The notes under the pieces: model-generated
The model's input: only the letters and a program-made list of their open reading frames with translations
What the model was told of the DNA's origin: nothing
Databases searched by the model: none
Assembly (NCBI GenBank): GCA_016927655.1
Contig: JAFGMG010000005.1
Span: 75,991-139,990, forward strand
Length of the DNA stretch: 64,000 nt
Reading direction: 5' to 3'
DNA from: Candidatus Dojkabacteria bacterium
Lineage (GTDB): Bacteria; Patescibacteriota; Dojkabacteria; B142; JAFGMG01
Shown: positions 456-62,645 of the stretch, one piece after another
How the letters are laid out: each line of letters opens with the position of its first letter
How positions within the stretch are numbered: position 1 is the first letter of the stretch
Position numbers and translations under genes: made by a program

Positions 456-1700
456 TTATTCAGGCTCAATCTCAAAAGTGTAAACAGGGTCTGTTTCTAA
501 AACAGATTCCGCTCCGCCGACACGTGCGACTTTTGAGAGTCCGTCGCTTAAATATCCCATGCCAAGTTCATTGATGTCTGTTTTGATTGCAACTAGGTAG
601 GAATTATCAATCCATTTTGCGTTTGCAAATCCGTCTGCTATAAGTGCTGGGGAGCCTGCCACATCATGGAAATACAAATGCCCTTCACCAGCGGCATCTT
701 CATTCCAATAGCTGATAAAGTTCCGATCAGGAGAGGTTTCAAGGTTGTACCCTCCAGTTCCGGCAAAAAACAAGACATTTCCTATTGTGTCTGTTGCGAA
801 CGTATATTTTTTTATCATATCTTCACTAATAAAATAAAATCCGCTATTTCCGTCAAATGTCGGGTGAGTTGCCCCTGCGATTGTTGTGATCGGCGTCCCA
901 TCTATTTGCGTTGCAATGATTGTATCTTCTCCCGGTTCTACAATAGTATTGAGTACAACAATTTTTGTATCATCGGGGCTGAAGCGGATTTGAATTCCAT
1001 CAAAGTTGCCACCGCCCCTTGCAGGTGGAATTCCAAATGATGCGATTGAGGTTGTCCCTGCGCCACTAGCGAGAATTGCTTCGTAGCTGTAATCCGCTTT
1101 TGTAATTATATATCCGAGCTTTGTAGTGTCATGGGTCCATGTGATATCAGAGACGTGTTGGGTGAATGGTGGGGTTGTATGTGCAAGCAATTCTGTATCT
1201 GCTGTAAGATCGTAAGTATAGATATTGCAGTCCCCGTCACATTTAGCGTATCCTAGTGTTCCCCGCTCTTTCCAGTCCACTGCGGTGTATCTAGTAGCGT
1301 CTCCGTCGCCGTCAAAAGTTATCTGGGTTTTATTGGTTCCATCGGTTTCCATGATCCATACATTGTCGTTTTTTAGGTAAGCGATTTTTCTGGGGCCAAA
1401 ATCTGTGTCGTCATCATCATCAGTATCATCATCAGGCGAATCAACATCATCTTCAACTATATCTCCATCATCGCCTCCTTTTGCATCATCACTGCTGTCT
1501 GAATCTTTGATTAAAAGAAAATATGCAAGAACTATTCCTGCTCCTAATACTGCCAATAAAAGTAATACAATAGCAATAATCCAGATTTTCATGTTTTTTG
1601 GGGGTTTCTTTGTCGCCGGTATGTCTGTTGTCGGTTTGGTCAGATCCGGAGGTGTGGTTTGTTTTATAGGTTGATTCTCAGGTGTTTGAGTTGTCTCCAT
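456..1700 (-). CDS. Membrane-anchored secreted protein with an acidic D-rich linker and a TolB-like (PD40/WD40-like) beta-propeller
   Basis: A TM anchor (MKIWIIAIVLLLLAVLGAGIVLAYFLL) follows the N-terminus. Next is an acidic linker (DSDSSDDAKGGDDGDIVEDDVDSPDDDTDDDDD). The remainder holds repeated motifs of the type FSPDDTKIVV / ISYWNEDAAG, typical of PD40 propeller blades. The true start may be the internal Met at MKIWII. Confidence 0.5.
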   Translation of the reverse strand: METTQTPENQPIKQTTPPDLTKPTTDIPATKKPPKNMKIWIIAIVLLLLAVLGAGIVLAYFLLIKDSDSSDDAKGGDDGDIVEDDVDSPDDDTDDDDDTDFGPRKIAYLKNDNVWIMETDGTNKTQITFDGDGDATRYTAVDWKERGTLGYAKCDGDCNIYTYDLTADTELLAHTTPPFTQHVSDITWTHDTTKLGYIITKADYSYEAILASGAGTTSIASFGIPPARGGGNFDGIQIRFSPDDTKIVVLNTIVEPGEDTIIATQIDGTPITTIAGATHPTFDGNSGFYFISEDMIKKYTFATDTIGNVLFFAGTGGYNLETSPDRNFISYWNEDAAGEGHLYFHDVAGSPALIADGFANAKWIDNSYLVAIKTDINELGMGYLSDGLSKVARVGGAESVLETDPVYTFEIEPE

Positions 1701-1806
1701 TGGCAGTTAATAAAAAATACAATAAACACAGTATAGCTGGAATTTTGAAAGAATAGAAATTTTCTGCAAAAATACTTGGTTATGTTTTTTATCTCTCCAC
1801 GCCTCA

Positions 1807-1862
1807 CTATGAAAAAATCGACATTTATGCTATATATGACATATTTGTCGATTTTTTCATAG
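1807..1862. promoter_or_regulatory. Copy A of a repeated palindromic intergenic element. Its core reads ctatGAAAAAATCGACATTTATG-N10-CATATTTGTCGATTTTTTCatag.
   Basis: Two ~23-nt arms match 21 of 23 positions as an inverted repeat, with a 10-nt centre. An A-run flanks the 5' side and a T-run the 3' side. The element lies in the divergent region between the starts of 456..1700(-) and 1888..2280(+). A near-identical copy sits at 62646-62703. Confidence 0.5.
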
Positions 1863-1887
1863 TGTCCTGGAAAGGTATCTTGACAGC

Positions 1888-2280
1888 ATGAACAGAAAAC
1901 AAAGAGCAAAAATAAGAAAAAAGAGAAAAAGGCTAGCGGGGAAAGATTTAAGAACGGCTCGTGAGCGTACAAGTAAATTCAATCTGGAAATGCGTGATAT
2001 CGAAGGACAATTCTTATCTCCCCAAAAGAAGAAAGCATTAGAACAAATCAGCCTTTTCAAAATGGCGGTTCGGAATTTAAAAGAAAAACGAAAAAGCTGC
2101 AAATTAACTCAAACGGAGCTTGCAAGAATATCGGGCGTTCCCCAGACTACAATTTCGCGAATTGAAAGAGGCTCTCAAAACGTCTCGTTAGGGAAAATTC
2201 AACAACTATCATTAGCTATGGGCTGTATAGGTGAGATTAATCTTATAGAACTGCCAGAAAAAGCTCTTCCCATCGCCTAG
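1888..2280 (+). CDS. XRE-family HTH transcriptional regulator with a basic N-terminal extension
   Basis: The C-terminal half (LTQTELARISGVPQTTISRIERGSQNVSLGKIQQLSLAMG) is a canonical XRE/Cro-C1 helix-turn-helix. The N-terminal ~58 aa are very K/R-rich. The real start may be the internal Met (MAVRNLKEKRKS). Confidence 0.6.
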   Translation: MNRKQRAKIRKKRKRLAGKDLRTARERTSKFNLEMRDIEGQFLSPQKKKALEQISLFKMAVRNLKEKRKSCKLTQTELARISGVPQTTISRIERGSQNVSLGKIQQLSLAMGCIGEINLIELPEKALPIA

Positions 2281-5399: not shown

Positions 5400-6731
5400 A
5401 TGGATGATTTTCAGATACTTCAAAAATATTCAAGTAAGCAAATCCTTATTGAAGGCTACGATATTGGTATGATTCGCGAATTCCTTGATTGGCTGGGTAA
5501 ACCTGATGAAGGGATGACAATTTTTCATGTCGGGGGGACATCAGGAAAAGGCTCTACCTCTACTCTTCTTGCATCGATTATGAAAATGCATGGCTTGAAG
5601 ACTGGACTTTTCGTTTCTCCGCATGTGGAAACTGTCAGGGAGAGAATCCAAATCAATAACGAATTTATCGAAGAGGGTGATCTGAAAAGCCTGGTTGACA
5701 AAGTGTTGGTGGAATTCAAAAAATTTGAGAAGGCTAATAGCAGAATTAAGCGTGCATTAACTTATTTTGAAATACTTCTCGTTGCTGCTCTGCTTTATTT
5801 CCAATCAGAACATGTCAAATATGTCGTTATTGAGGTTGGCATTGGAGGAAAACTGGATCCGACAAATGTGCTTTTTGGCAAATATTGCATTTTGACCAAC
5901 GTTGGACTTGATCATCAAAAATATCTTGGGGATACGGTCGAGGAAATTGCAAAAGACAAAGTACAGATTGTGAAATCAGGTGCGAACCTGATAACAGGTA
6001 TAGAAAAACCGAGAGTTAGAGAGATTATCAAGGGATGGACAGAAAAGGTGACTGTAGATGTACTTTGGTCTGATAAAGAATTTGATATAGGAAAGATTGA
6101 TGTTTCTTTAGACGGAACAAGTTTTGACTATCGTTTCGGGAAGATACTCTTAGAGGGTCTTTGCACAAATTTGATAGGAGAGCATCAAGCGAAAGATTCG
6201 GCACTGGCTATTACGGCTTTTCTTAAATTTGCCAAGGATAGCGGACTTGTCTGGGAGACTGAATTGATAAATAAAGGCCTGAAGGTCAAAAATTTCCCGG
6301 CAAGATTCGAAATTAAATCCAGGAGCCCCTTGATTATCTGGGATGGAGCGCATAACGCGGACAAAATGAAGGCACTTATTGCAGCTGTAAATAAGATCAA
6401 GGGAGATAGAAAAATCAAAATGCTTTTTGCGCTAAAGAGTGATAAAGAAGTAGAAGGAGTCGTAGCTGCAATAAAAACACTTGGTGGCGAAGTGTCGCAG
6501 ATTGTTCTGACAGATTATAAGATCCGGCAGGATATAGAAGTACATTCTGCAAAAGCTGATACTGTGAAAAAAGTTCTAAATAAAACAATACCCAAAGTGC
6601 AAATTCTTTATAATCCTGAGGCAGAAGGTGCATATCATCGCCTGGTCGCAGAGCTTCAATCGAGTGAAATCCTTCTTGTCACGGGATCTTTCTATCTTCT
6701 AAGCTTCTTAAGTGAGAAATTGAAAAATTAA
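5400..6731 (+). CDS. folC: Mur-ligase-family folylpolyglutamate synthase / dihydrofolate synthase-like
   Basis: A P-loop (HVGGTSGKGSTS), a Mur ligase central domain and the overall ~440-aa length fit FolC better than MurC-F. Assignment is by motif recall only. Confidence 0.6.
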   Translation: MDDFQILQKYSSKQILIEGYDIGMIREFLDWLGKPDEGMTIFHVGGTSGKGSTSTLLASIMKMHGLKTGLFVSPHVETVRERIQINNEFIEEGDLKSLVDKVLVEFKKFEKANSRIKRALTYFEILLVAALLYFQSEHVKYVVIEVGIGGKLDPTNVLFGKYCILTNVGLDHQKYLGDTVEEIAKDKVQIVKSGANLITGIEKPRVREIIKGWTEKVTVDVLWSDKEFDIGKIDVSLDGTSFDYRFGKILLEGLCTNLIGEHQAKDSALAITAFLKFAKDSGLVWETELINKGLKVKNFPARFEIKSRSPLIIWDGAHNADKMKALIAAVNKIKGDRKIKMLFALKSDKEVEGVVAAIKTLGGEVSQIVLTDYKIRQDIEVHSAKADTVKKVLNKTIPKVQILYNPEAEGAYHRLVAELQSSEILLVTGSFYLLSFLSEKLKN

Positions 6732-10640: not shown

Positions 10641-12590
10641 ATGAAATACAAAATTGCAGACAAGAGAATATTTCAAGGTTTTTTGTTTATTATCGTGTCA
10701 GCTGTGGCTGCTTCCGGTCTTTTGCAGCTTGTACAGGCTGTCCCTCTGGCTGATCCTGCAGATCAATTTTTAGTCAATTCTCCAAAGGCGAATTCTACCC
10801 TAGTAGAAACCGTAAATATCCAATTTAAGTTGTATGACGATGAGAATGCCAACCCTGAATATGAAATTGCGCTTTATCAGCCGAATTGTATTACAAAATA
10901 TGGGACAATAGCGGTCAATGATTATTCAATCAAAGACGGGAACAATGTCTATACTAAAGCATATAATACCGATGGAGCAATGATCGACCGGCCTGCTGCT
11001 GCTGATGGTACATATTGTTTGAAGGTGTGTACTACTTTGAGAAACGGAGCTGCAAATTATTCTGTTTGCGACCTTCGCTCAGTCACTCTCGCTCAAAAAG
11101 CAAACTCAGCCCCAGTAATTACATCCAATCCGCCAAATGCAAATTATATTATCGGACAGAGGTTCGGATATGATGTTCAGGCAAGTGATGCTGATGGGGA
11201 TGCTTTGAGCTACGTACTTGTCAATACGCCTAGTTTTTTGCAGATCAATCCTTCAACCGGGGAAATTACATCCAAGGGTGAGCTGGCAACTATAGGAAGC
11301 TTCCAGGTTCTTGTTTACGTCGATGACGGAAATGGTGGAAGGGACTCTCAGCAATTTGAAATAGTGGTAGTGGAACAGCCTGTGGTCATACTGCCGTCAG
11401 TAGTTATTTCCAATCCTTCTGCTGATGAACTAATTATTGATGACACGTTGAATATCGAATGGAGCATTGCTGCTATCACAAACATCAGCAAAATCGAGCT
11501 TTTTTATTCGACTGACGGGGCGAAGTGGACATTGATCAAAGCTCTGGATCCAACGGCTACTAATTATGCGTGGGATATATCGGGAATTCCTGATGGGGAG
11601 TATTATTTGAAAATTGTAGTAACTGATGATGCCGGAAATATTTACGAATATATTGTAGATACTTTTTCAATAAATAGAGAGAATGATGAGCCTATTGAAA
11701 ATGCTGCTGGTATTATTGACGTTATCCCTAAGGAAGATAGTGAGTCAAATTCAATTGCAAAAATCGAAGCGACTCTTGTTCCAAGCGCCGGCAGTGAAAT
11801 TATTGCTGATTCTGTGAAAGTGCTTCTTGATGATTCAGATATTTCAGAATCATGCGCACTTCAAGGCGACCGTCTTGTTTGTAATATCGGAGACCTCGGG
11901 CTTGGAAAACACAAGATTGAGATCAGTTTTGAAGACAGCGGTGGAGAAAAAGCTCAAAAATCATGGTTTTTTACTAAAATTGAGGCTGACGCTCAGAAAG
12001 ATAAGGGCAGCGGACTCAATACCTCTACTCTTCTTGTGATTTTTGTCATCTGCGTTGTTGCGCTATTTATTATTATTATTCCTTGGATTTTGTATTCAAT
12101 CTGGAGGGGAAGAGGCAGTGAAGAAGACATTTATGTGAATGACTATGGAACAACTCCTGGCGCTGGCGGTGCTTATGACGCTGCAACTGATGTAAATGTA
12201 AATATCGATCCAAGAACGGATCTGGACAGCAGTTATTATACGCAGCCTGCAATGGATGAAACTCCAGCTGATGTAGATGTGGATTTTGATGAATATAATG
12301 TCGGCGAAGGTGCTATTGGAGAGGATCAGAATTTCGCTCCTGTGCAGCCTCCAGTAGCCAGCGCGCAGGCGAGCTCACCTGCTCGCGACCAGCAGCCTCC
12401 AACAGCAGCGGCAGATCAGGGGCTGGATGAGGGGGATATTCCTGACTGGCTAAAAGGTGATGATATAAGTGATCCTGTAGATACAAAGGGCGAGGAAATC
12501 GATCTGGATACTGCAGAAGAGAAAAAGGACGAATTGAAAGGTGCTGATCCATACTCTGATTATGGACTTGCGCAGAAGGATGATAACTAG
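10641..12590 (+). CDS. Type I membrane surface protein with cadherin-like / putative Ig (He_PIG-type) domains and an acidic cytoplasmic tail
   Basis: It has a signal peptide. The He_PIG-like motif reads DADGDALSYVLVNTPSFLQINPSTGEITSKGE. Ig-like repeats follow, then a single TM (LLVIFVICVVALFIIIIPWILYSIW). The C-terminal tail is D/E/P-rich. Confidence 0.6.
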   Translation: MKYKIADKRIFQGFLFIIVSAVAASGLLQLVQAVPLADPADQFLVNSPKANSTLVETVNIQFKLYDDENANPEYEIALYQPNCITKYGTIAVNDYSIKDGNNVYTKAYNTDGAMIDRPAAADGTYCLKVCTTLRNGAANYSVCDLRSVTLAQKANSAPVITSNPPNANYIIGQRFGYDVQASDADGDALSYVLVNTPSFLQINPSTGEITSKGELATIGSFQVLVYVDDGNGGRDSQQFEIVVVEQPVVILPSVVISNPSADELIIDDTLNIEWSIAAITNISKIELFYSTDGAKWTLIKALDPTATNYAWDISGIPDGEYYLKIVVTDDAGNIYEYIVDTFSINRENDEPIENAAGIIDVIPKEDSESNSIAKIEATLVPSAGSEIIADSVKVLLDDSDISESCALQGDRLVCNIGDLGLGKHKIEISFEDSGGEKAQKSWFFTKIEADAQKDKGSGLNTSTLLVIFVICVVALFIIIIPWILYSIWRGRGSEEDIYVNDYGTTPGAGGAYDAATDVNVNIDPRTDLDSSYYTQPAMDETPADVDVDFDEYNVGEGAIGEDQNFAPVQPPVASAQASSPARDQQPPTAAADQGLDEGDIPDWLKGDDISDPVDTKGEEIDLDTAEEKKDELKGADPYSDYGLAQKDDN

Positions 12591-31026: not shown

Positions 31027-32085
31027 ATGAATCAAATGCAACTTCAAGTTAATTCTTTTGAGAGAATCAAGCACATTGATGAGAATGGCAATGAATATTG
31101 GCTGGCAAGGGAATTGATGCCTTTGTTGGAATATATGGAGTGGAGGAATTTCTTGAAAGTGATTAGGAAGGCAAGAATTTCGTTTGGAAAAACTTATCAA
31201 CAAATTGGCAGTCATTTTGTTAAAATCAACAAAAAGGTAACTATTGCTACTGGGACAAACAAACAAGCGTTGCGCCCAATTCTTGACTACAAACTCACGA
31301 GACGTGCTTGTTACATTATCGCTCAAAACGGCGACAGCTCAAAGGAAGCCATCGCTTTGGCGCAGAATTATTTTGCCGAACAGACGAGAAAAAGAGAGAT
31401 ACAAGAGGATTTAGATAAATTCCAGAAGCGTCTGCAGGCAAGAGAAAAGCTGAAGGAGACAGAGAAAAAGCTATCAGCGACACTTCAGGAACATGAAGTG
31501 CGCGACAGCGAAATAGGTCATATCCGCTCGGCTGGGGATGCGACACTTTTTGGTTTGAAAACCAGAGATATGAAGAAACGGCTGAGTGTGCCTGAAGGAA
31601 AACCCCTGGCAGACCATCTGCCGGTGATTTCTTTGAAAGCAAAAGACTTTGCAGCTGAAATGACAACTCATCAGACTGTCAAAAAAGGTCTGTTTGGCAA
31701 AGATCCGATTATGAACGAGCACGTACATAATAATAGAGAAATCAGAAGGCTTTTGACCTCAAATGGGATTTTCCCGGAAGAGCTTCCGCCTGAAGAGGAT
31801 ATAAATAAATTAAAGAACAAATTCCCTGAGAAAAAGAAACTGCCTGAGAATACTACCTATCCTGCAGATGAGCATTTTCTTGCGATGACTGATTTCTCTG
31901 TAGACATCACAGGAGTAAATGACAGGGAATTTATAAGTCAGTTACATGAAATTATTAAAATGAGCCCAGGTGAGTCTGAAATGAAAATATATTATGGCAG
32001 CCCTGATAAGCCGAAAATGGTGCGCAGAAAGGTTGAGCTATCTCAGGAATTACTGGGGTTTGTGAGGGATTATCTGATTTACTGA
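31027..32085 (+). CDS. dinD: DNA damage-inducible protein D-like (DinD family)
   Basis: The N-terminus (RIKHIDENGNEYWLARELMPLLEYMEWRNFLKVIRKA) and the downstream stretch (LTRRACYIIAQNGDSSKEAIALAQNYFAEQTRKREI) closely parallel E. coli DinD (EIRHYGTEGQEFWSARELAPLLGYRDWRNFQKV... / LSRYACYLVVQNGDP...QTYFAIQTRRQEL). The match was recalled from memory and not computed. Confidence 0.75.
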   Translation: MNQMQLQVNSFERIKHIDENGNEYWLARELMPLLEYMEWRNFLKVIRKARISFGKTYQQIGSHFVKINKKVTIATGTNKQALRPILDYKLTRRACYIIAQNGDSSKEAIALAQNYFAEQTRKREIQEDLDKFQKRLQAREKLKETEKKLSATLQEHEVRDSEIGHIRSAGDATLFGLKTRDMKKRLSVPEGKPLADHLPVISLKAKDFAAEMTTHQTVKKGLFGKDPIMNEHVHNNREIRRLLTSNGIFPEELPPEEDINKLKNKFPEKKKLPENTTYPADEHFLAMTDFSVDITGVNDREFISQLHEIIKMSPGESEMKIYYGSPDKPKMVRRKVELSQELLGFVRDYLIY

Positions 32086-35549: not shown

Positions 35550-35565
35550 TTGTATTGCAATACAA
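35550..35565. promoter_or_regulatory. Perfect 16-bp palindrome TTGTATTGCAATACAA (candidate operator), site 1
   Basis: Located in the divergent region between the histidine kinase (-) and the SPFH gene (+). The extended site reads cattgtattgcaatacaaatttt. An identical core recurs at 36558-36573 in the opposite extended orientation. Confidence 0.45.
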
Positions 35566-35672: not shown

Positions 35673-36452
35673 ATGGAATTCTTTTTGCTATTTTGTATTG
35701 GCGGACTTGGATTTATTATGATTTCGTTTCTGCCGCTTGTAATAAGGCAGGTAAATCAATATGAACGCGGGGTTTTGTTTATGCTCGGCCGTTATCAAAG
35801 GACACTTGAACCTGGGATTCATGTAGTAGTGCCAATCATCCAGAGAATGATGAAGGTTGATATCAGAACGAAGACGGTTGATCTGCAGGATCAGGAGGCA
35901 ATTACCAAAGATAATGTCTCGACCAGGATCAGCGCGGTACTCTATTACAAAATTTCAGAAGCCTCAAAAAGTATTATAGAAGTTGAAGATTATGCATGGG
36001 CATCGTCTCAGCTCGCAGAAACAACGATGAGAACTATTGTCGGGGAATTTGATCTGGATGAGCTTCTAGCTCATAGAGACAAAGTCGCGAGCAAAATCGA
36101 GCAGATCGTGGAGAAGACAACTGCTGCCTGGGGGGTCGAGGTGCAGGCGGTTGAGCTGAAAGATGTGATTCTGCCTGAGAATATGAAAAGAACGATTGCA
36201 AAGCAGGCGGAGGCCGAAAGAGAAAAGCGAGCGACGATTATCAATTCTGAAGGAGAAATGATAGCAGCAAAAAATCTTTCAAAAGCTGCAGAAACGATGG
36301 CAAATCATCCGGGAGCACTTCACCTGCGGACTCTAAATTCGATCAATGACATTTCCTCTGACCAGTCAAATACTGTGGTATTTGCGGTGCCGTTGGAGGC
36401 TCTAAGAGCACTTGAGGGAATTGGGAAAACCTTAGGTGGCGGGAAGAAATGA
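35673..36452 (+). CDS. SPFH / band-7 (stomatin-prohibitin-HflC/K-like) membrane protein
   Basis: An N-terminal TM precedes the SPFH domain (YERGVLFMLGRYQRTLEPGIHVVVPIIQRMMKVDIRTKTVDL...). The C-terminal coiled coil carries an EAEREKRA motif. Confidence 0.85.
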   Translation: MEFFLLFCIGGLGFIMISFLPLVIRQVNQYERGVLFMLGRYQRTLEPGIHVVVPIIQRMMKVDIRTKTVDLQDQEAITKDNVSTRISAVLYYKISEASKSIIEVEDYAWASSQLAETTMRTIVGEFDLDELLAHRDKVASKIEQIVEKTTAAWGVEVQAVELKDVILPENMKRTIAKQAEAEREKRATIINSEGEMIAAKNLSKAAETMANHPGALHLRTLNSINDISSDQSNTVVFAVPLEALRALEGIGKTLGGGKK

Positions 36453-36557
36453 TTCTCAGTGTAAAAGAGACAATATAGCCAAATAGAACTGCTATTGCTT
36501 TTCCTTAATCATTTCCGATCTCCCTGGGCAGAAATTATTCCGAAATCCTCAAAAATT

Positions 36558-36573
36558 TGTATTGCAATACAAT
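36558..36573. promoter_or_regulatory. Perfect 16-bp palindrome TTGTATTGCAATACAA (candidate operator), site 2
   Basis: It sits 51 nt upstream of the 36624 (+) start. The extended site (aaaatttgtattgcaatacaatg) is the reverse complement of the extended site 1. Confidence 0.45.
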
Positions 36574-36623: not shown

Positions 36624-37445
36624 ATGTTTAAATCGGTAACTAAAGGGAGAAAGTTTCTTCTTCTTGGCTTCATTGCTTTGATATTTATTGCAGCTCTAAT
36701 AATCAACATTTTCCTGATACTAAATACACCAAAAGTAGAAAGTCCTAATGATTTTGCTAAAAGTGAGGAAGATGTTAATGATAAGCAAGCGGTCTCTCCG
36801 GATAATTCTAAAGTTCTTGATCTTAAAGCGACAGATAACAATTTTACATTAAGCTTATTGGATTCTAAGGGAGAAATACTCAAAGAGTTCGAATCAGACG
36901 AAATACTTGATGCAGCGTTTGGGATGAATAGTCTGATATATTATCAAAAAGCAGGAGATGATTTTGGGATTTACGCGTACCCTCTGGATTCCGGTACTCC
37001 AGTGAGAATAATAAACTCAATTGATCCGCAGTTTTTTTTAAATATTGCCTTTATTTCGGATGAGAAATATTTCTTTATAGAGCCAAAAACCGGCAAATAC
37101 GGTTTTGGATATGTTTCAGGCGGAGGAAATGAATATCTCGGACAGAAAACTTCAGGTGTAGAAAGCGTGGTTGAAACAAACATTGCCGCATTTTCAAATC
37201 CATTTGTATTGCCGGCTGGGGAAAATATATTTGTAATAACAAGATCCGTTGTCCAGGAGGAGATAAAACTTTTTATTGAGGCGTATCCGATAGATCAAAA
37301 GCCTTTCAGCAATCCGGTTTTTTCCGAAGAACTGGGTTCAGATTTTGGGCAGGAAATAGCAATAGACGTTGAGGGAGACAATCTGAAAATCAGGACATTT
37401 AATTTAGCTGTAAATATGCAAACTTTCGAAATTTCAAAAATATAA
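36624..37445 (+). CDS. Hypothetical membrane-anchored protein (273 aa)
   Basis: N-terminal TM (LLLGFIALIFIAALIINIFLIL). No recognised domain. Sits immediately upstream of the giant Rhs gene. Confidence 0.45.
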   Translation: MFKSVTKGRKFLLLGFIALIFIAALIINIFLILNTPKVESPNDFAKSEEDVNDKQAVSPDNSKVLDLKATDNNFTLSLLDSKGEILKEFESDEILDAAFGMNSLIYYQKAGDDFGIYAYPLDSGTPVRIINSIDPQFFLNIAFISDEKYFFIEPKTGKYGFGYVSGGGNEYLGQKTSGVESVVETNIAAFSNPFVLPAGENIFVITRSVVQEEIKLFIEAYPIDQKPFSNPVFSEELGSDFGQEIAIDVEGDNLKIRTFNLAVNMQTFEISKI

Positions 37446-37466: not shown

Positions 37467-40400
37467 ATGAAAAATCTCTTCCTGAAATTTAGACTCCCCG
37501 GTTTGTGTTTATTAATAGTTTCTGTAATAGCTGGCATAACTGTTTTGAATTATGTATCTTACAAGGATGCAAAGAACAGTGAACCTATTACTCTCCCGCA
37601 GGAGGAATACGTTCCTAATATTCCCAGGGTGGAGCCTATTAAAGTCGAAAATGAAAGAGATTTTGTTGAGAATCAAGTTCTTCTTACGTTTGAAAATGGA
37701 ACAAGTGAAGATGAAATAAATAAATATGTTGAATCTATCGGAGGTAAGGTCGAAGTAAATATAGATAAACTTGATTCTGTTGTTGTAAGCTTTTCAAGTA
37801 CTGTCCCTGATAAATTCCCGGAAAATACAATATTAGCTTCAAGCGAGAAGGACTATCTGGCAGTAGCTTTGGGAGATAAAGATAAGGGAGCCTCTAGTGA
37901 AAGTTATCAGCTATCTCAAAGTGAAATTGAGAATACAAATTATACAGATGAAGTAATAGTCGCTCCCCCACTTGATGTTCCAGAAGATGCATACAAACCT
38001 GTACAGCCGTTTAATGATCCTGAATATATCAATCAATGGGGAATGCAGGTGATGGGAATTGAAGATCTTTTAAGGCAAGATAAAAGTACACAGAAAGAAA
38101 CTATCGTGGCAGTTATTGATAGCGGCATTTGCATAGATCATCCGGATCTTGCCGGAAAGATTGTAAAAGGTTATGACTTTGTGGAAAATGATAATATCCC
38201 TCAAGATGATTTTGACCATGGCTGCGGTGTAGCTGGAATTATTGCAGCTAATATTGATAATGAAAATGCGATAACCGGTGCGGCTCCAAATGCAAAAATC
38301 ATGCCGCTTAAAGTTTTAGATTCTCAAGGAATCGGGCAATATTCTGATATAGCCTCTGCAATTATTTATGCAGTTGATCATAAGGCAAAATATGTAAATA
38401 TAAGCGCTGGTGGCATTCAAGATTCCATCCTTCTTAAAAAAGCAGTGGATTATGCGAAAAAAAATAATGTAGTGATAATTGCTGCTGCTGGTAATACTTA
38501 TTCTGAAGAAGCGCTCTACCCTGCAAGATATGAGAGTGTTATTTCCGTCGGCTCTATAGGGCAGAATTTTTATGTGAGTAATTTTTCAAGCAGAGACAAA
38601 GCTGTTGATTATTGGGCTCCTGGAGAGTCAATCGTTTCTCTAACAGCAGGCAATAGTACTAGCTATTTTTCCGGAACCAGTTTTGCAGCTCCATATATTA
38701 CAAGCTTGTATGTTGATGGAATCTTGAACAGCAAGACAAAATTGCATGGCGGAATGCCAACAGCAGAAGGGAATGTATTGAGTGTGAATTTTGATAGTGT
38801 CGGCACTGAGGTTATAGGCTGGGGAACAACTGAGTTCGATCCCAAAAATACAAAGGACAATCCACAGGAGGAATTCCTGACCGCTCAATCAAGTACAGCC
38901 TGTGTGACTCGTTATGATACTGGATGGTGGGCTGGTGCATATTGTTATATCCAGGGAACACTTCAAACAGGAACAAGCACTCAATACAAAATTGTAACAT
39001 CAGGCAAGACATATAATCTCAACCTCAGTAATGCATCACAATATTTAAATAAGACTGTAAAAGTTGAGGTTAAATACACAAGTCAATGGTCATTTACTGT
39101 ACTCTCAGTAACGTTGATAAATAATGTCCCGATTGGGTATTTTGATAATGTAGATATTTATACTTTAAAAGTAAATGGCTGGGCATTTGATCCTGATACT
39201 CCCTCTCAGTCAATAAATGTCCATGTTTATATCGATGGACCGGCAGGTTCTGGAGCCCCAGGGTATGCTGTTTTAGCTGGAAACTACCGCGGCGATGTAA
39301 ATGCTGTCTATGGAATTACTGGAAATCATGGTTTCTCCTGGCCCCTGCCCTCTCAATTTACTTCGGGAACCCATACTTTTTATGTGTATGCAATAAACAG
39401 CTGGGGTGGAGCAAACCCGCAGATAAGCAGATCCCCGCTTCAGGCGACAATTCCAGTTTTTGACTATGATCCCCCTTCAGATAAAATAACAAGCATTTCT
39501 AATAATACTTCTTTGTATGGGAAACTTGTACCTCAAGGGGAAAATGCAGAGAAATTGAGCGAGGCAAACACTAGCATATCTTATGAGGCTTCTGATCCAG
39601 ATGCTGATCCGGTAAACACAGCAACTGGATTTCTTGATTATTCAGTAAATGATATTGGTTATACAGAGATTAATGGTATCCCGTTTGATTTTATTAGGGC
39701 ATACAATTCTGACAGCAATTATTCAGGAATTTTGGGAACTGGCTGGCAGGCTTCTTTTGATATGAAGCTTATCGCTTCTGTGAAAAATGGTACATACGGA
39801 TGGACAGTGCTATTCCCTGATGGACATGGAGAGACATTTAATGAGCCTGATAATAATTATCGAACTTTTGATTATCAATTTACTAATGCGAATAGTGAAA
39901 ATAAAGGTACACTATTTAGATACGGAGCAACTGGCGGTCCTGCACCATGGGCTGTTATTTACATTGATTCGCAGACTGGAAAACAGTTTTCTTTCCGAGC
40001 AGAACGGGTGGCTGGAAGCATGTTCGGGAAAATGATCCAGATAAAAAACCCTGACGGTTCTGTTGTAGATTATTCTTATGATGCAAACGGAAAACTTTCA
40101 AGTGCGACTGAGCAGACTTTCGGCAGGAAATTTAATTTTTCAATTGATGCTTCGGGGAGGCTTACTACAATTACAGATGTTTTAGGTAGACCTGTTACTT
40201 ATAGTTATGATGCCAATGGTAAGCTGGCACAGGTAGTCAATACTTTAGGTGGTGTTACTAAATACTTCTATAATGCTGAGAATAAAATTCGGCGCATTGA
40301 GGATCCAAATGGGAACACAACTTATGAATTTGTTTATGACGGTTCTGGCAGGGTTAGTGCAAAAACTAATGGAACTGGACAGGTAACAACGTATTCTTAT

Positions 40401-43400
40401 TTGGAGAATGGGGGCCTGAAAATAACTACTATTACTGATCCGAATGGAAATTCAACCATCCACAAGCATAATGATAAAAATTATTTCGTTGAGAAAATCG
40501 CACCAAATGGCGATGTGACTAGTTATACGTATGATGATAAAGGCCAGAGGCTGAGCGAAACTTTCCCAGATGGAAAAATTTATCACTTTGAGTATGATAC
40601 TAAAGGGAACAGAACAAAAACTATCTATCCAAATGGGTACGAAGTAGCAACTGTTTACAATGATTCAGGAAAACCAACTAAGATCACTGAAGGCAATAAT
40701 GACAGAATTACAGAATATGGGTATGACTCAAAATTTAATCTTACCTCCGTTACAGATCCGGAGGGTAATACAGTTACTTACGAATATAACACTAATAACC
40801 AGCTTATAGGAACGATATCTATAGGAGAAAATAAGAGATGGGATAACAATTTCTTCAGCGGGCCAAATTGGGATCCAACAAAAACAGTTGTAACAACGGG
40901 TGATGTAAATGGAGATGGTTTGCAAGACATTGTCGGGTTTGGCATAGATGATATTTATGTCGCTTTGTCAAATGCTGATGGGTTTGATGAACCGCAGATA
41001 TGGCATAGTACAAATTACACTTTAAATGATTGGGGATGGAGTGTATCAATGCACCCAAGAATGCTTGCTGATGTGAATGGAGATGGAAAAGATGATATTG
41101 TCGGGTTTGGTGGTGGTGGGGTTTACGTTTCTTTGTCCGATGGAGCAAGATTCTTGGAAGGAAGTATGTGGTCAGCAAGTTTTGTTTACAATTTGGGCTG
41201 GCGGGTGGAAAAGCATATCAGAGTAATGGGAGACGTAAATGGAGATGGTAAGGATGATATTGTCGGTTTTGGGGATGACGATATTTTTGTTGCATTGTCA
41301 ACTGGCAGTAGTTTTGGTGGATCCCAGATATGGCGAAGTGATGATTTTACATACAATGACTGGGGATGGAGGGTGGAAGCAAATCCAAGAACACTTGGAG
41401 ATATAAATGGGGACGGTAAAGATGATATTGTCGGGTTTGCAGGTTCTGTAGTCGCGGTAGCTATCTCCAATGGGACACAATTCCTGCCGACGTCACTCTG
41501 GACTAGTGAGTTTAGCTACAATCAGGGCTGGAGAGTCGGAGATCATGAGCGTTACGTGAGTGATATTAATGAAGATGGCAAAGCAGATATAGTCGGTTTT
41601 AAAGACGACGCTGTCTATACTGCATTCTCAACAGGGACAAGTTATCAGTCTTCTCAAGTTCTAGATAGGAACTTTAATGTAGGAGATGGCTGGAATTTTT
41701 CGAGCAGAAGATTTGCAGGTGATTTGGATGGGGATGGAAAAACAGATCTTTTCGGTCTAAAAAGTGATGGTATTTACGCTACAACAGGCAGGGGGAAAAT
41801 TACATCATTAAGCTATGACGCGAAGGGCTATCTGGCTGCGCAAAAAAATGATAATGCCAATGCAACAACCAGCTATACAAATAATCTAATTGGATTTGTG
41901 CAAAGCAAAACAGATCCAAATGGCAATACCTCCCAGTACACATATAACTCTATCGGCAATAAAACAAGTGAAACAGATGCAAATGGAAATACTAAAACTC
42001 TTGAATATGATCTGGCTGGGAATTTGACGAAGGAAATTGAAGAAGCTGGGGTTGAGACGGTTTATGTTTATGATGCAAACTATAATGTAGTCTCGAAACA
42101 AGTTGGAGATGCGCAGATTACTAGTTACCAATACGATGCCGGCGGTAGAAAAATCAAAGAAATTGCCCCAGAAGGAAATTATGTTGTCTACTCTTATGAT
42201 GCAAATGGCAGATTGACAAAAACAGAAAATTTTGGTGCAGATGATGTTTCTCTAGGTGCTGTTACGACTACATATAATAGTTCTAACACAAAAGCTTCTG
42301 AAACTGATGCGAATGGGGTTCCCACTACTTATACTTATGACGCCCTCGGCAGGCTTGCCAGCGAGACAAAGGCTGGCAAAACAAAGACTTATACATATGA
42401 TCAGTGGGCAAATCTGACTAGTGAATCTGACTGGGAAGGGAATGTAAGTTTCTTTGCTTATGACAAGAATAATAATAAAGTCCTGGAAAAGAATCCGATA
42501 GAGGTAGATCAGCGAACTCAGGGTAAAATCAGCAAATACGATGCGGCGGGAAATCAAATTGAAATAGTTGATTCAATGGGCGGGGTTACGAAACAATACT
42601 TTGACACGGAAAAGCGACTGATCAAAGTCGTCAATCCAAAAGGACAGATGGCAGACTATACTTATGCCAAAAATGGCAATCTACTCTCTCAGATAAATTT
42701 TGCCGGTGAAATATCGACATTTAACTATGACGGGAATGGAAACCTGACCAGTAAAACTGACAATCTGGGCAATGTGACCGCATTTACTTACAATTCAAGG
42801 AATCAAAATACTTCGATCATTGATGTAAATGGCAATGTCACCTCTATGCAATATGATCAATACGGTAATCTGGTTCAGGTCACTAATGCTGAAGGAGGAT
42901 TGAGGACTTTCAGCTATGACCTGAATGGCAATTTGATTTCAGAAACTGACGAGCTTGGCAACACAAAGACATATGCTTATAACTCTTTGGGCAAAAGAAC
43001 AGCAGAAACAGAGACAAAACAAGTTGCAGGGGAACTTACTGAAGTCACTAGGGCCTTTGAATACGACAGTAAAGGAAACCTGACTGCTGCTGTCAATGAA
43101 AGAGGACATACAATAAACTATTCTTACAACGCATTTGATAAAGTTACAACAGTAGAAAATCCCGATGGCACCTCGAAGGGCTTCAGCTATGACGGAAATG
43201 GCAATGTGCTGACTAGTACTGACGAACTTGGTAATGTGACGAGTTTCACTTATGACAAGATGGGTAGAAAATTGAGTGAGACTGATCCTGCAGATTATAC
43301 ACAAAACTATGCTTATGATCTGCTTGGCAGGCTTGTGAGTGAAAGTGATAAGAAAGCGAATGAGACAAACTATGAATATGATTCTGTCGGGAATGTGACT

Positions 43401-46400
43401 AAAGTGACGGATCGCGGCGGAAATGAAACTACAGTGGCTTATGACGGCGGCAATAGAATATTAACTGTGAATTATCCAAATGGACTTGAATTGACTAATG
43501 CCTATGACGGGCTTGGAAGAAAACTCTCGGAAACTAAATCCGGCGCTAGTCTCCCCTCCTCTGTCGTTGAGCAATACAGTTATGATGATCTTGGTAATTT
43601 AATTTCAAAAACTGATGCAAATGGCAGCGTCACGACTTTTACATACGATGATCTAAACAGGCAATTGGCCGAGAACAAGCCGCTTGGGCTTACAGCCGAG
43701 AAAACCTATGACGCGGCCGGCAATGTGATTTCCCAGACAGATGAAAACGGTAATACTACGACATTTGCTTATGATCCGGCAGGATCAGTTACAAGAAGAA
43801 CTGACGCGCTGGGTGTGAGCACTTCTTACAAGTACGATGCAGCTGGCAATTTGATGCAGGAAATTAACGGGAACAGTGTCCCAACCTACTACAGTTATGA
43901 CAGTAGAAATAGAAAAACAGAGACAAAAGACAGAAATCTGGAAGTGCTTGAGAGCCTTGAATATGATGGAGCTGGTAATGTCACATTAAGGTATGATGCC
44001 AATAGTTATGCAACGGAATTTACATATACTTCAACCGGACTTCTTGCCTCTACAACTGATCCTGCCGGCAATACGATCAGCTACAGTTATGATGAAAACG
44101 GCAATATTCTGACTGAAGCAAATCAGCTTGGGTTTGTTACAAGCTATGCTTACGACTCACTTGACCAGGTAATCCATGAAACCGATCCGCTTGGCAATAT
44201 GTGGGTTTATGAATACGATCAGGCTGGCAATCCTATCACGGGGATAGATCCTTTGAATAGAACTCTTTCAAATCAATACGATGAACTCGGCAGGAAGATC
44301 AAAGTTTCTCAAAACAGCCAGAGTATGGGGGTGGTCGAGACAGACTATGAATATGATAATAACGGAAACCTTGTACAAGCTATCGATCCAATGGGCAATA
44401 TCACAGTAAATGTCTACGATGCTCTAAACCGCAGGCTTAGTACTACAAACGCAGAAAACGAGACAAAATATTTCAGTTATGATGGAGTCGGGAATATTAC
44501 CCAGACAATCGATGCTAATGGTAATTCTGTGGAATATTCTTACGATGATGTTTATAGAAAAATCGCACAAACAGACGAACTTGATTATACAACTGGCTAT
44601 TCTTACGATGATGCCGGGAATTTATTGAGTATCACAAAGCCAAGGGGTAACTTGGAAAGCTATGCTTATGATGATTTCGGCAGGAAGATTAGTTATACAG
44701 ACGGTGAAGGCAATGTAACAGACTACGAATATGACAGGAATGGGAATTTGACTGCAGAGTTGCGGCCAAACGGCACCAGGCATACTTACGGATATGACGC
44801 TCTCAATAGGCCGATTGTTGAATATTCTATTGCTCCGGGCGAAGATCCTGTCGCCAGGTCTAGAACTGACTATGATGCTGCAGGCAGAGTGATCAAAACA
44901 ACCGATGCGCTTGGGAATTTCACAACTTATGAATACGACGGTCTTGATAGATTGACTAAAGTTATTGATCCGCTTCAGCATTCTACTTTCTACTCTTATG
45001 ATGCAGTTGGGAATCTGACTAGAGAAATAAATGCAAACGGTGCTGTTACAAATTATACCTTTGATGAATTTAACAATCTGATCACTGAAACTGACCCTAC
45101 GTCGCACACATGGAGCTATGAGTATGATAAAAACGGGAATATTGCGAAAGAAACTGATGCTAATGGGAATGTAAATACTAGAGAATATGACTTCGCGGGA
45201 AGGATTACTGCAAAAGAGTATCTGGATGGAAACAATAATCCTCAGGCAGAAAGTACGTATTTTGAATATGATAATGCAGGTAATTTGATCAGGGCGTACA
45301 ATCAAGCCCAGGAAAATGTATTTGATTTTGACGAAAGATCAAGTATTACAGGAACGAGTGATTCGAGAAATTACACTCAGAGCTATACTTATGATGCTAA
45401 CAATCTTCTGGAAACTCATACCTTTGCAGACGGGCACGAGCAGGAGCTTACATATAACCAGAATGATCAAGTCTCGCAGATGAAAATGGTCTACAATGGC
45501 GATAGTGTGACAGAGAATGATTCTTACGCTCTCTCTACTCTATTTGAATACGACAGCAATGGTAATCTGAACTATCAGATAAATCCTGATAAAACTGTGA
45601 TTTCCAAGACTTATGATGCTCTTGATCAGGTTGTTGAAGTGAATAATTACATGTCAGCCGATGCTTCAGCTGAGCCTGGAGAGCCTGCGTGGAAAACTCC
45701 TGAATATGTTCTTGCGAAGTACAATTATGAATTGAATGCGAATGGACAGAAATTGAGCACTGACTTTTTCTCAAATTGTGACAAAGACAACGTCTGTTCC
45801 GCTGGGACAAACGTAAGCACGACTGACAATTATGCTTATGACGCTGCGGGAAGACTTGTCCAATCGAGCAGGACAATTGATAATCCTACGCAGACTATTG
45901 AGAAGGTGAGCTACACGGACAATTATACATATGACGCGGTTGGTAATAGAACGGCCTATTCTTCGACTCAGAGCGGATCTCCTGTGACTGTGAATTATGC
46001 TTACAATCTATCAAACCAGCTTACTGGTAGTGATGATGGCTGGAGCTATAGTTATGATGCTGATGGCAACAGGACTGCTAAATCAAATTCGTCTACTGGT
46101 GAGTATGTGAATATGACATACAACAGAGCTGATGAAATGACTGGAGTTGATAGTAGCCTAAAGGATGAAAGTGGTAACCTGGAAACATACAATTTGAGCT
46201 ACACTTATGATGTCCTTGGCAGGAGGATCAAGAAGCAGGTGAATGCAAGTGATGGGAGTGAAACTTATGATGGAATTCTCTTTCAGAACTACCTCTATCA
46301 GACTAATGGCTGGGATATGGTGAGTGAGTACACAGACAGGGAGATTGGCACTGATCTTCATACGAACTATTACATGGCAAAACTTGACTCTTCTCTGCCC

Positions 46401-58994: not shown

Positions 58995-60410
58995 TTGTTA
59001 CTGCAAAACTTCATGGCCGTTCAAATTGACTATTTAGCCCCACGTGGCTGGGAGCCTCAAAATTCAGACGAAGATTATTTAATTGCATATTTCCAGATTT
59101 CACTAAAAGACGGAATTCCTGATGACAAATTTATGGATGCTGCTGCCACGGTTGCAGCTGAGTCGAGTACGGGGACATGGACAGTAGTTGATGAAGGTCC
59201 AAACGCCGGGATGGATAACGCTGAGCAGTATAGAGCTTTAGTCTTTGACATTGATAAAAAGAACAAGCGATTTAAAATTGCATATCCGGCGAATCTCTTT
59301 GAACTTGATAATATGTCTGGAATGCTTGCAGGATTCGCCGGGAATATCGGCGGAATGAAAGCGATCAAAGGCATGAGATTGCTCGATGTCAGATTTCCAA
59401 AAAGAATTGTCAAGGCATTTCCCGGGCCAAAGTTTGGCATACAGGGTCTACGAGACCTTCTGGGTCATTACGATGATATGGATGATAAACTCCGCCAGAA
59501 AATGCCGATCATGGGAACTGTCCCAAAACCAAAGGTCGGAAGGACTGCCGAGCAGCAAGCCGCACTTGCAAGAACTCTTTGGACAGCCGGAGATAATACT
59601 TATGACTTTATCAAAGATGATGAGAATTTGACATCTCTGCCATTTAATAATTTCTACGACAGGACAAAGCTGCTTTTAGAAACTCAGCACGATGTGGAAA
59701 ATACTTCAAAGAATAAAAGATTCACACTGCTAAATGCAACACATTCAAATTTCGAGGAAGTTGTACGAAGAGCTGAAGCGATTAGAGACGGCGGCGGCAG
59801 GTTTGTAATGCTTGATGTTGTTGTCTCGGGTTTCGGGACGCTGCATTCTTTGAGAAATGAAGATCTGGGGCTTGCGATTCATGCCCACCGCGCGATGCAT
59901 GCGTTTATGACCAGACATCAGCAGATCGAGAGCGGCAAGGATATTGTTGATTTTAGTATTTCGATGCTTGTACTGGCAAAAATTTATAGAATGCTTGGTG
60001 TGGATTCACTTCACACCGGTTCTCCAAAGGCAAAAATGGAGGATTATGGAGAAAGTGAAATAATAGCAGAAACGATTTCAACTGACGTTGTGAAGGCTAG
60101 CGAAAAAGATCTGACTCTTGGTCAAAACTGGTTTGGAATGAAAGAATCCTGGCCTGTGGCATCTGGAGGGCTTCATCCGGGCGTGTTAGATAAAGTTGTC
60201 GAAAAATTAGGGCCGAATATATTTATTCAGCTTGGAGGAGGAGTTCTGGGGCATCCTGAGGGTATTTCAAGAGGTGTTGAAGCTGCTCTTGAAGCTAGGA
60301 AAGTGATTGCTGCTGGCGGGACTGTGAAGGAATATGTAAAAAATAAGCCGGATTCTGCACTTGCCAAGGCAGTTGAGCTTTGGGGTTTTGAGCCAAGAGT
60401 GGTATATTGA
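58995..60410 (+). CDS. rbcL: Ribulose-1,5-bisphosphate carboxylase/oxygenase large-subunit homolog (form II/III-type)
   Basis: The hallmark RuBisCO motifs are all present: VAAESSTGTWT (N-domain), GTVPKPKVG (K175-equivalent), FIKDDENLTSLPF (carbamylated Lys in KDDE), AIHAHRAMHAF (His/Arg catalytic pair) and QLGGGVLGHPEG (phosphate-binding GGG loop). Length is 471 aa. No small subunit, PRK, or AMP-phosphorylase/R15P-isomerase gene is present in the window. Confidence 0.85.
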   Translation: MLLQNFMAVQIDYLAPRGWEPQNSDEDYLIAYFQISLKDGIPDDKFMDAAATVAAESSTGTWTVVDEGPNAGMDNAEQYRALVFDIDKKNKRFKIAYPANLFELDNMSGMLAGFAGNIGGMKAIKGMRLLDVRFPKRIVKAFPGPKFGIQGLRDLLGHYDDMDDKLRQKMPIMGTVPKPKVGRTAEQQAALARTLWTAGDNTYDFIKDDENLTSLPFNNFYDRTKLLLETQHDVENTSKNKRFTLLNATHSNFEEVVRRAEAIRDGGGRFVMLDVVVSGFGTLHSLRNEDLGLAIHAHRAMHAFMTRHQQIESGKDIVDFSISMLVLAKIYRMLGVDSLHTGSPKAKMEDYGESEIIAETISTDVVKASEKDLTLGQNWFGMKESWPVASGGLHPGVLDKVVEKLGPNIFIQLGGGVLGHPEGISRGVEAALEARKVIAAGGTVKEYVKNKPDSALAKAVELWGFEPRVVY

Positions 60411-60630: not shown

Positions 60631-60643
60631 TTACAGACAGCAT

Positions 60644-60892
60644 ATGTTCAGAAACGAAGAGAAAAACTTAATTCGGCCAGATCCAGAAGAAATATCTTCT
60701 AAGTTATTAGAGCTGGCTTTCAAAATAAAACGGATCAGGCACGAACACACCATCACCGTAAGGGAACTTTCGGAGATTACTGGGATCAGCTCTCGCACTA
60801 TATGGAGACTGGAAAACGGCAAAACAGTAAAACTTGAAAGCTTGATCAAAATGCTCTATGTTTTCGGTTGCGATTTACGCATAGAAAACTAG
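60644..60892 (+). CDS. XRE-family HTH regulator (82 aa)
   Basis: HTH: ITVRELSEITGISSRTIWRLENGKTVKLESLIKMLYVFGCDL. Confidence 0.7.
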   Translation: MFRNEEKNLIRPDPEEISSKLLELAFKIKRIRHEHTITVRELSEITGISSRTIWRLENGKTVKLESLIKMLYVFGCDLRIEN

Positions 60893-61921: not shown

Positions 61922-62374
61922 TTAGAATTGAATTTCGTCAATTACGAATTTTAAGCTGTCTCCTTCTTTAAGTTCATAGTCGCTGACTCCGACTGGAGCG
62001 TCTTCTCCATTTATCTGGAATTTCCAGAACTGGTTGCTTGCTGGTGTGACTCCACCAATAGAGCTAATCATTACTCCAAAGTCATACTCATCGTATTCGA
62101 AAGTGAAGTCTGAATTCGCAGTTAAATTGTTTAGAGCGTCAAATGCGCTTTGGCCTTCCTGTACGCTTGCTTGATAGGTTGCGGTATCAGTGATTTCAAC
62201 AGGTACTGTAAATACATTTGCTATGTCTGATTGCTGCTCTTGCTGTTCTTCCTGGACATCGTTTGTGTCTGAGTCGCTATTTGAAATGAGATAATAACCA
62301 AGGCCGATGAGTGCTGCAATTATGACTAGTGCAGCTGCTAGCGGGGCGAGTTTTCTTGCATTTTGTTTTTGCAT
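61922..62374 (-). CDS. Hypothetical secreted or anchored protein (150 aa)
   Basis: Signal anchor (LAPLAAALVIIAALIGLGYYLI) followed by an acidic region and a small domain. Confidence 0.45.
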   Translation of the reverse strand: MQKQNARKLAPLAAALVIIAALIGLGYYLISNSDSDTNDVQEEQQEQQSDIANVFTVPVEITDTATYQASVQEGQSAFDALNNLTANSDFTFEYDEYDFGVMISSIGGVTPASNQFWKFQINGEDAPVGVSDYELKEGDSLKFVIDEIQF

Positions 62375-62645
62375 CGAAACAATTTAATAAATATAAATAA
62401 AAAAAACTCCCCCAAGCTGGAGAGATTATTTAAAAAAATAATTTCCTGCTCGGGATATTGTAGACAATTCTCAGGTTCGGACTCTAACCGTTGCGGCACA
62501 GTGCGGGAATTTCCAAAATTTAAAAAGCTGGATCACCCGGTTCACTGAAAAATCGTCATGATGACTTTACCCCGGGAAATTTTTTATGTCAAGGATTTTT
62601 CTTCGAGAGCAAACTTTGTATTGTCGGGTACTACTCCTGGCGCAC

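Follow-up and report, generated by a model that had tools for sequence, protein, structure and literature searches.

A 60-nt palindrome in two copies in a Dojkabacteria contig: a candidate dispersed hairpin repeat that resembles a bidirectional terminator

A 64,000-nt stretch of DNA from a Candidatus Dojkabacteria bacterium (GenBank assembly GCA_016927655.1, contig JAFGMG010000005.1, positions 75,991 to 139,990 of the forward strand; hereafter the window) carries an AT-rich palindrome of 60 nt in two intergenic copies, A and B. We read this palindrome, tentatively and with a probability of about 45%, as a small lineage-specific dispersed hairpin repeat of the kind of REPINs (REP doublets forming hairpins, REP being repetitive extragenic palindromes) or MITEs (miniature inverted-repeat transposable elements), with the shape of a bidirectional terminator and probably a terminator role at copy B. 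On present evidence it is a repeat of an ordinary type, known in two copies and with a putative function; it matches no Rfam family and no described element that we found in the literature. The initial annotation of the window had proposed two similar palindromic copies. They do exist, with the exact limits given below, and are 82% identical over 60 nt.

1805-1864, strand not applicable: copy A of the palindrome, CACTATGAAAAAATCGACATTTATG-ctatatatga-CATATTTGTCGATTTTTTCATAGTG
62643-62702, strand not applicable: copy B of the palindrome, CACTATTGAAAAATCGACATTTATG-acacatacag-CATATTTGTCGATTTTTCGACAGTG
1813-1829, plus strand: invariant 17-nt core of the left arm in copy A, AAAAATCGACATTTATG, identical in copy B
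1840-1856, plus strand: invariant 17-nt core of the right arm in copy A, CATATTTGTCGATTTTT, identical in copy B
62651-62667, plus strand: invariant 17-nt core of the left arm in copy B, same letters as in copy A
62678-62694, plus strand: invariant 17-nt core of the right arm in copy B, same letters as in copy A

The sequence read amounts to 75 kb, i.e. the window and the flanks recovered as contigs L001 and L002; the relatives compared include L123, L124 and L128/L129, and 150 kb of relatives were searched for the palindrome. The same DNA is present in the Logan assembly of SRR13394437. The palindrome is not an assembly artefact, each copy being located within a contig between flanks that are unique, although this assembly and the metagenome-assembled contig of the window probably derive from the same reads.

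Each copy is made of two 25-nt arms (not 23 nt, as first annotated) around a 10-nt loop. The arms are complementary at 23 of 25 positions in copy A and at 21 of 25 in copy B, which has one G.T pair in addition, and the stem is interrupted in both copies by the same 2x2 T.T mismatch (ACA-TT-TATG opposite CATA-TT-TGT). This common arm length, loop length and internal mismatch indicate that the copies are related by copying and not by the independent evolution of two sites or two terminators; at least one of them would thus have been born by copy-and-paste. The conservation formerly described as extending beyond the arms is the outer CACTAT/AYAGTG part of the palindrome itself. The 40-nt flanks of the two copies resemble each other no better than shuffled sequences do (p = 0.15-0.9), so that the homologous unit is the 60-nt palindrome.

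Inside this unit the differences are unevenly distributed. In the direct alignment none of the 34 arm-core positions differs, vs 11 of the 26 positions of the loop and outer stem (Fisher p = 2e-5). Invariant arm cores, a variable loop and outer stem and a constant loop length make up a REPIN-like pattern of conservation, and the invariance of the cores suggests that some protein recognises the sequence of the stem. Among the stem pairs three are variable: in two of them both partners have changed and still pair (A-U to G-C and G-C to U-G), and the third became a mismatch. The 18-nt half-site GAAAAATCGACATTTATG occurs five times in the window at up to 3 mismatches, vs 0.26 expected. Four of these occurrences are the arms of the palindromes, and the fifth (42708), which lies inside the giant repeat-rich open reading frame (ORF) 37467-48236, looks like a chance match. 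Apart from this one, no solitary arm was found outside the two copies at the same tolerance, nor any parent insertion sequence (IS) with matching ends.

Both strands of both copies fold far better than shuffled sequences, with z-scores of -5 to -8, in agreement with the strong hairpin predicted on either strand by the initial annotation, and in a hairpin scan of the 75 kb copies A and B are, by a wide margin, the two longest hairpins with a short loop. The centre of the element is a 34-nt stem-loop (TCGACA..TATG / CATA..TGTCGA) flanked by a run of five or six A and a run of five or six T, an order of A-run, stem-loop and T-run that yields a hairpin followed by a U-tract in the RNA of either strand. 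Without the A and T runs the core hairpin has an energy of -8.4 to -10.6 kcal/mol, with U5-U6 next to it on either strand. It is energetically comparable to a terminator-like hairpin that follows a riboswitch-like leader of the same genome (-7.4 kcal/mol). By its folding the element would form a long hairpin with the shape of a bidirectional intrinsic terminator, an activity that we infer from the shape. A six-frame translation across the palindrome gave no credible or conserved small ORF.

Copy B occupies a terminator position. Its surroundings comprise the following features.

62741-63985 as listed, minus strand: cysS; the listed ORF begins at an internal GTG, and the full gene encodes 473 aa and starts past the right end of the window
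62564-62592, minus strand: promoter-like sequence TTGACA-17-TAAAGT of the DUF4430/DUF6580 operon, conserved in L129, about 50 nt past copy B
62468-62526, minus strand: cobalamin (AdoCbl-II)-like aptamer, E = 0.007, below the Rfam gathering score
62407-62424, minus strand: terminator-like hairpin followed by T8, immediately ahead of DUF4430 and presumed to be the expression platform of the riboswitch-like leader
61922-62374, minus strand: DUF4430 gene, the first gene after the leader, followed by DUF6580

Read along the minus strand, 38 nt separate the cysS stop codon (62741) from copy B, and since no other hairpin precedes the next promoter, copy B is the only candidate terminator for cysS. 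From its position, it would most likely end the cysS transcript and shield the riboswitch-controlled DUF4430 promoter from read-through. That copy A does not occupy a terminator position, since it stands between divergent gene starts, was rightly noticed by the initial annotation, which missed the terminator position of copy B. Copy B had instead been placed upstream of a secreted-protein gene; DUF4430 does lie beyond it, but copy B is directly behind cysS, and the promoter, the riboswitch-like leader and its terminator come in between, the predicted transcription start of the DUF4430 operon being about 115 nt downstream of the palindrome. Thus the two copies stand in intergenic regions of unrelated kinds, copy A between divergent genes and copy B behind a stop codon, as would be expected of a dispersed repeat.

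The leader of the DUF4430/DUF6580 operon (62407-62592; L129:2860-3130), with its conserved promoter TTGACA-17-TAAAKT, its aptamer and its terminator, looks in its own right like a divergent cobalamin riboswitch for a putative B12-uptake pair in Dojkabacteria. The aptamer of L129 scores better than that of the window (E = 3e-5), still below the gathering score.

Among the relatives, only L128/L129 shares the synteny cysS-DUF4430-DUF6580-RuBisCO (its cysS is 68% identical), more distant cysS relatives sharing none at this site. The palindrome is missing there. Where the window has copy B, the gap of L128/L129 from cysS to the DUF4430 promoter contains a gene for a 176-aa product on the opposite strand.

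L129:2285-2815 (also L128:11501-12031), minus strand: 176-aa gene like those of RAYTs (REP-associated tyrosine transposases), NCBIfam NF047646

Its product matches NF047646, “REP-associated tyrosine transposase”, with E = 6e-12, which is below the curated cut-off, and it shows an HUH-like motif (PDHMHGI) and a C-terminal tyrosine motif; searches of Pfam and PDB with this product gave no match. A GC-rich hairpin tagged by GTAG, GTAGGAACGCGCAACTTGCGCGTTCC (L129:2253-2279), adjoins the gene. A RAYT-like gene together with such a hairpin, at the syntenic site of copy B, indicates that elements of the REP/RAYT type exist in this clade and make use of this site. Two further observations concern the same relative. 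A perfect 28-nt palindrome, GGGGGAACACAAAATTTTGTGTTCCCCC, is found inside the RAYT-like gene, and L128 has a short dispersed repeat with the palindrome AATTCTTAAGAATT (12029-12070, 1878-1916 and 5845-5880), one copy being in the 5' flank of the RAYT-like gene and two in other intergenic regions.

Further copies, which the initial annotation had proposed to look for, were searched for in several collections. Apart from the chance-like half-site at 42708, neither copies nor half-sites were found elsewhere in the 75 kb (hairpin scan, mismatch scan, word count and covariance model), and no copy was found in the 150 kb of relatives (short-word BLAST, mismatch scan and covariance model); the covariance model, built from copies A and B, returned nothing else from the 229 kb of window, flanks and relatives. 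Specific two-arm patterns had no match in metagenome contigs of the Joint Genome Institute (JGI) or in viral contigs, and a looser one had four, all of them unrelated palindromes. Genome contigs scanned with the loose pattern AAAATCGACA-N18-32-TGTCGATTTT gave at least 118 generic terminators of A-tract, hairpin and T-tract from many phyla, with no true homolog among the matches listed. Rfam 15 gave no family at gathering or relaxed thresholds, the only matches being generic microRNA hairpins far below threshold. A literature search on palindromic repeats or MITEs in Patescibacteria, or Candidate Phyla Radiation (CPR) bacteria, brought nothing relevant.

Other identities were tried and rejected. 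An uptake signal like the DNA uptake sequences (DUS/USS) does not fit, since beyond the four arms themselves the 75 kb contain the 9- and 10-mers of the arms no more than 2-3 times. Judged by eye, integron attC sites, XerCD dif sites, parS, NrdR boxes and PlcR boxes do not fit either, by their core motifs or their spacings. The copies do not bound a 61-kb island either: the genes between them are core genes syntenic with the relatives.

The interpretation as a dispersed hairpin repeat is supported by the hairpin-preserving changes, by the size of the element and by the place of copy B, where the relative has its RAYT-like gene. Several results weigh against it. The known copy number is two within the 75 kb read. 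The GTAG-tagged hairpin of the relative is unrelated in sequence to the 60-nt palindrome, and neither a GTAG nor a CGTC tag abuts the stem in either copy, as read from the sequence. A search of the window for other REPs with a GTAG tag gave no convincing one. An HUH/RAYT-type enzyme would be one candidate for the protein that recognises the stem, but no RAYT gene was found in the window and its flanks by tblastn or Pfam. As candidates for a target-site duplication the copies have around them only vague TCC(T) matches at unequal distances. Their relative orientation is ambiguous, with 11 differences in the direct and 12 in the inverted alignment, so that a common orientation is not established, and in the inverted alignment, counted by hand, the contrast is weaker (4 of 34 arm-core positions vs 8 of 26 others). 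The covariation of the stem is not significant with two sequences, the same level being reached by 116 of 500 shuffles. Canonical terminator-like sites are no more frequent in the window than in shuffled sequences, and so the genome may not rely on such terminators. Lastly, copy A adjoins a regulator gene, of which there are few, and a selfish repeat leaves this coincidence unexplained. Thus, with two copies known in 75 kb, no RAYT found and no GTAG/CGTC tag, membership of the REP/REPIN class is not shown.

Part of these results would also suit a functionless relic, either the one-off duplication of an ordinary terminator hairpin or the footprint of mobile DNA at two variable sites. The two copies seen in 75 kb agree with it, and gene content differs from the relatives at both sites: the relative has its RAYT-like gene at the site of copy B, and at that of copy A the gene XRE1 replaces a small membrane-protein gene. 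We nevertheless hold a relic to be quite unlikely, because the absence of differences at the 34 arm-core positions, vs about 40% divergence of the loop and outer stem, argues for constraint, and because both copies have kept a near-perfect symmetry within a very compact genome. Indeed the intergenic gaps of the window are mostly of 10-70 nt. The window contains no tRNA gene that we could find and no Rfam family at gathering score, and in domain searches, Pfam included, none of the 33 proteins of the window that were scanned showed a domain of a transposase or an integrase.

Copy A occupies a 187-nt gap between two divergent genes.

1888-2280, plus strand: XRE1, 130-aa HTH_3 (helix-turn-helix) protein by domain match, orphan; its ATG is 23 nt past the end of copy A
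456-1700, minus strand: membrane-anchored “TolB-like” protein of 414 aa with only a weak DPPIV_N match; its start is 104 nt from copy A

The 414-aa protein has an ortholog in the relative L124. The closest relatives, whose pyrG is 79% and 75% identical, keep the gene order membrane protein, pyrG, response regulator, greA-like gene and folC, with a small membrane-protein gene in the place of XRE1 between the membrane protein and pyrG. The palindrome is absent from the syntenic site of copy A in these genomes, and the comparison with relatives, also put forward by the initial annotation, thus shows that XRE1 and copy A are both lineage-specific at this site. XRE1 begins with a Lys/Arg-rich extension of 58 aa. 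A search of 5.8 billion proteins returned XRE1 itself as the only homolog, with a word-based prefilter that may miss distant relatives. Its best matches in PDB are controller proteins of restriction-modification (R-M) systems, a similarity which is that of HTH domains in general.

The position of copy A had led the initial annotation to propose an operator of the XRE regulator and a small regulon of exported proteins. In such a scheme the palindrome would be a double-stranded DNA site through which XRE1 regulates itself at copy A, together with the TolB-like gene, and DUF4430/DUF6580 at copy B. The adjacency of copy A and XRE1 stands, as does their shared absence in the relatives, and both agree with this scheme, as do the end of copy A 23 nt before the XRE1 start and the divergent layout of a regulator and its target. 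The size, the spacing and the position of copy B do not, and overall we consider the operator unlikely. The matches of XRE1 with R-M controller proteins, which bind composite operators of about 35 bp, speak for it, generic as they are, and invariant arms around a variable centre also suit an operator with two half-sites. Cro/C1-type operators measure 14-20 bp, however. Here the site would be of 60 bp, with 25-nt arms that are not self-symmetric, far larger than a Cro/C1-type operator, with half-site cores about 28 bp apart centre to centre and TCGACA cores 22 nt apart edge to edge; the genome's own operator-like palindrome, TTGTATTGCAATACAA, which is found twice, is of 16 bp.

The location of the copies relative to promoters can be read in both directions. 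The dyad-symmetric copy A lies in the promoter region of XRE1 itself and overlaps the promoter-like hexamers TCGACA-16-CATATT, and both copies are centred about 100-115 nt upstream of the predicted leftward starts of membrane- or secreted-protein genes, which are weak predictions; such promoter-like matches occur at chance frequency. Copy B moreover belongs to the downstream end of cysS and is not part of the conserved promoter of DUF4430, and as this operon has its own promoter and a leader with B12-riboswitch-like control, the operator would have to act from about 115 nt upstream of the start. The paralog XRE2 is, like XRE1, preceded by a long inverted repeat. Two homologous copies of 60 nt nevertheless call for transposition or duplication rather than for the evolution of a site, and a hairpin is what the stem-preserving double changes suggest (not significant, n = 2). 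The anatomy is therefore better fitted by a hairpin repeat of the REP/MITE kind, which the initial annotation had listed as an alternative.

A control of XRE1 by its RNA leader has also to be weighed. The hairpin and its U6 would then belong to the 5' leader of XRE1 and act as an attenuator or as a site for RNase III or for RNA stability. The Lys/Arg-rich N-terminus of XRE1 might counter the hairpin as an RNA-binding arm, and copy B would be a hairpin of the same kind behind cysS. The shape of a hairpin with a U-tract and the basic extension of XRE1 are consistent with it, and so is a fold of 125 nt in which an extended helix pairs both the Shine-Dalgarno-like motif GGAAAGG and the AUG, but no alternative antiterminator is evident and the hairpin dominates the ensemble. 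A candidate promoter is present to the left of copy A (TTGAAA-17-AAAAAT, 1745-1773), again a prediction at chance level. Since the two copies would be transcribed from opposite strands they would yield different RNAs; there is no Rfam match, and XRE1 orthologs from which covariation could be read were not found. We regard leader control as very unlikely.

A composite view would be that of a mobile cis-regulatory cassette, i.e. a hairpin repeat endowed with a recognition site for XRE1 that, through its transposition within a reduced CPR genome, would have wired otherwise unrelated loci (XRE1, the TolB-like gene and the junction between cysS and B12 uptake) into one regulon. XRE1 would possibly read the hairpin by its Lys/Arg-rich N-terminal arm. 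This view appears highly improbable to us.

With the palindrome taken as a dispersed hairpin repeat, copy A would be without a gene to terminate. It would probably have come along as a passenger at a variable site, the same that took up the orphan XRE1, whose expression it may affect incidentally. CPR genomes measure about 1 Mb, are densely packed and are commonly regarded as repeat-poor, and we found no REPIN-like replicator of CPR bacteria in the literature. If the whole genome were to hold many copies, with or without a RAYT-type gene, the palindrome would be a clear REPIN-like replicator in a CPR bacterium. It would in that case also show how such a genome gets its transcription terminators. 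If on the other hand XRE1 binds the element, the case would illustrate how copy-and-paste of a large operator can spread a regulon.

Other observations were made near XRE1 and its paralog. XRE2 (60644-60892) is 33% identical to XRE1 over the HTH region and is missing from the syntenic relative L129. The DNA around the starts of the two genes is similar over about 30 nt (1882-1911 and 60636-60666: GACAGCAT..G..CAGAAA.C.AAGAG; shuffle p about 0.01). The inverted repeat that precedes XRE2 has arms of 28 nt (60459-60486/60604-60631), 93% complementary and 117 nt apart, and it ends 12 nt before the gene. It has no further copies in the window, and could be a MITE-like insertion of 173 nt or two operators, one on either side of the XRE2 promoter. 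On the other side of XRE1, the leader upstream of pyrG (2281-2335) is conserved in three genomes (counterparts L124:1515-1552 and L123:243-280). It displays a -10-like TATAAA, GGGC 6 nt later and then a pyrimidine tract (CTCCTCC), a layout which resembles the CTP-sensing pyrG attenuator of Bacillus based on reiterative transcription.

Elsewhere in the window, the perfect 16-bp palindrome TTGTATTGCAATACAA (35550-35565 and 36557-36572) precedes an SPFH/Band-7 gene (35673-36452) and the next gene (36624-37445), and is seemingly an ordinary operator that the two genes share. Compared with L129, the gene of the form II/III-type RuBisCO (58995-60410) has the opposite orientation with respect to the genes around it. 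A weak inverted repeat of 21 nt (58962-58982/60442-60462, 76% complementary, with the ends GGTTCTAG/CTAGAACC) encloses it, and so do small lineage-specific genes, namely a 114-aa ORF and, at the opposite end, XRE2. The ORF of 3589 aa at 37467-48236, which is followed by an ORF of 129 aa, is rich in degenerate repeats (families D1-D11) that encode YD..GN-type motifs, and is probably an RHS/YD-repeat surface or toxin protein. A protein of 352 aa (31027-32085) has a Bro-N domain and a strong match to the phage family phrog_8036 (E = 4.5e-69); its gene is phage-derived and sits between core metabolic genes.

The element can finally be compared with four known systems. It resembles the operators of R-M controller proteins by its place directly upstream of a small HTH_3 gene and by a dyad that exceeds the site of a single dimer. 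Those operators (C-boxes) are however of about 35 bp and made of two sub-palindromes, whereas here the dyad is of 60 bp, with non-palindromic arms and widely spaced half-sites, and an unrelated locus has a second homologous copy of full length.

Small repeats of the MITE type, such as the Correia elements of Neisseria, the enterobacterial ERIC/IRU and the palindromic elements of Rickettsia, are about 100-150 nt long. Like them, the palindrome is short, non-coding and intergenic, has terminal inverted repeats and can form a hairpin, and such repeats can carry promoter- or terminator-like activity. It differs by its smaller size of 60 nt, by the lack of a convincing target-site duplication and by the fact that no IS with the same ends was found.

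REPINs have invariant inverted ends and a less conserved spacer whose length and pairing matter, with compensatory changes (Bertels & Rainey 2011, PMC3116915). For REP palindromes a conserved GTAG or CGTC tetranucleotide at one of their ends is described (Di Nocera et al. 2013, PMC3733652). The palindrome differs from both by its 2 known copies, vs tens to hundreds for REPINs, by being AT-rich and not GC-rich, by the lack of the GTAG/CGTC tag and by arms that do not form small palindromes of their own; the 75 kb read yielded no RAYT, and the palindrome has no sequence similarity to the GTAG-tagged REP of the relative. It is like them in being extragenic and symmetric, with two inverted conserved blocks of about 16-17 nt around a less conserved spacer of fixed length, in forming a hairpin in single-stranded DNA or RNA with compensatory changes in the stem, and in the RAYT-like gene that occupies the syntenic site of copy B in the relative.

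As for bidirectional intrinsic terminators, those that are unrelated share no sequence, whereas here 34 stem positions are identical between the copies; copy A moreover stands between divergent starts, the stem is AT-rich and has a 2x2 mismatch, and the loop is of 10 nt. The likeness resides in the succession of A-run, stem-loop and T-run, which gives a hairpin and a U-tract on both strands, in the location of copy B 38 nt after a stop codon and in a core energy near that of the riboswitch-associated hairpin of the genome.

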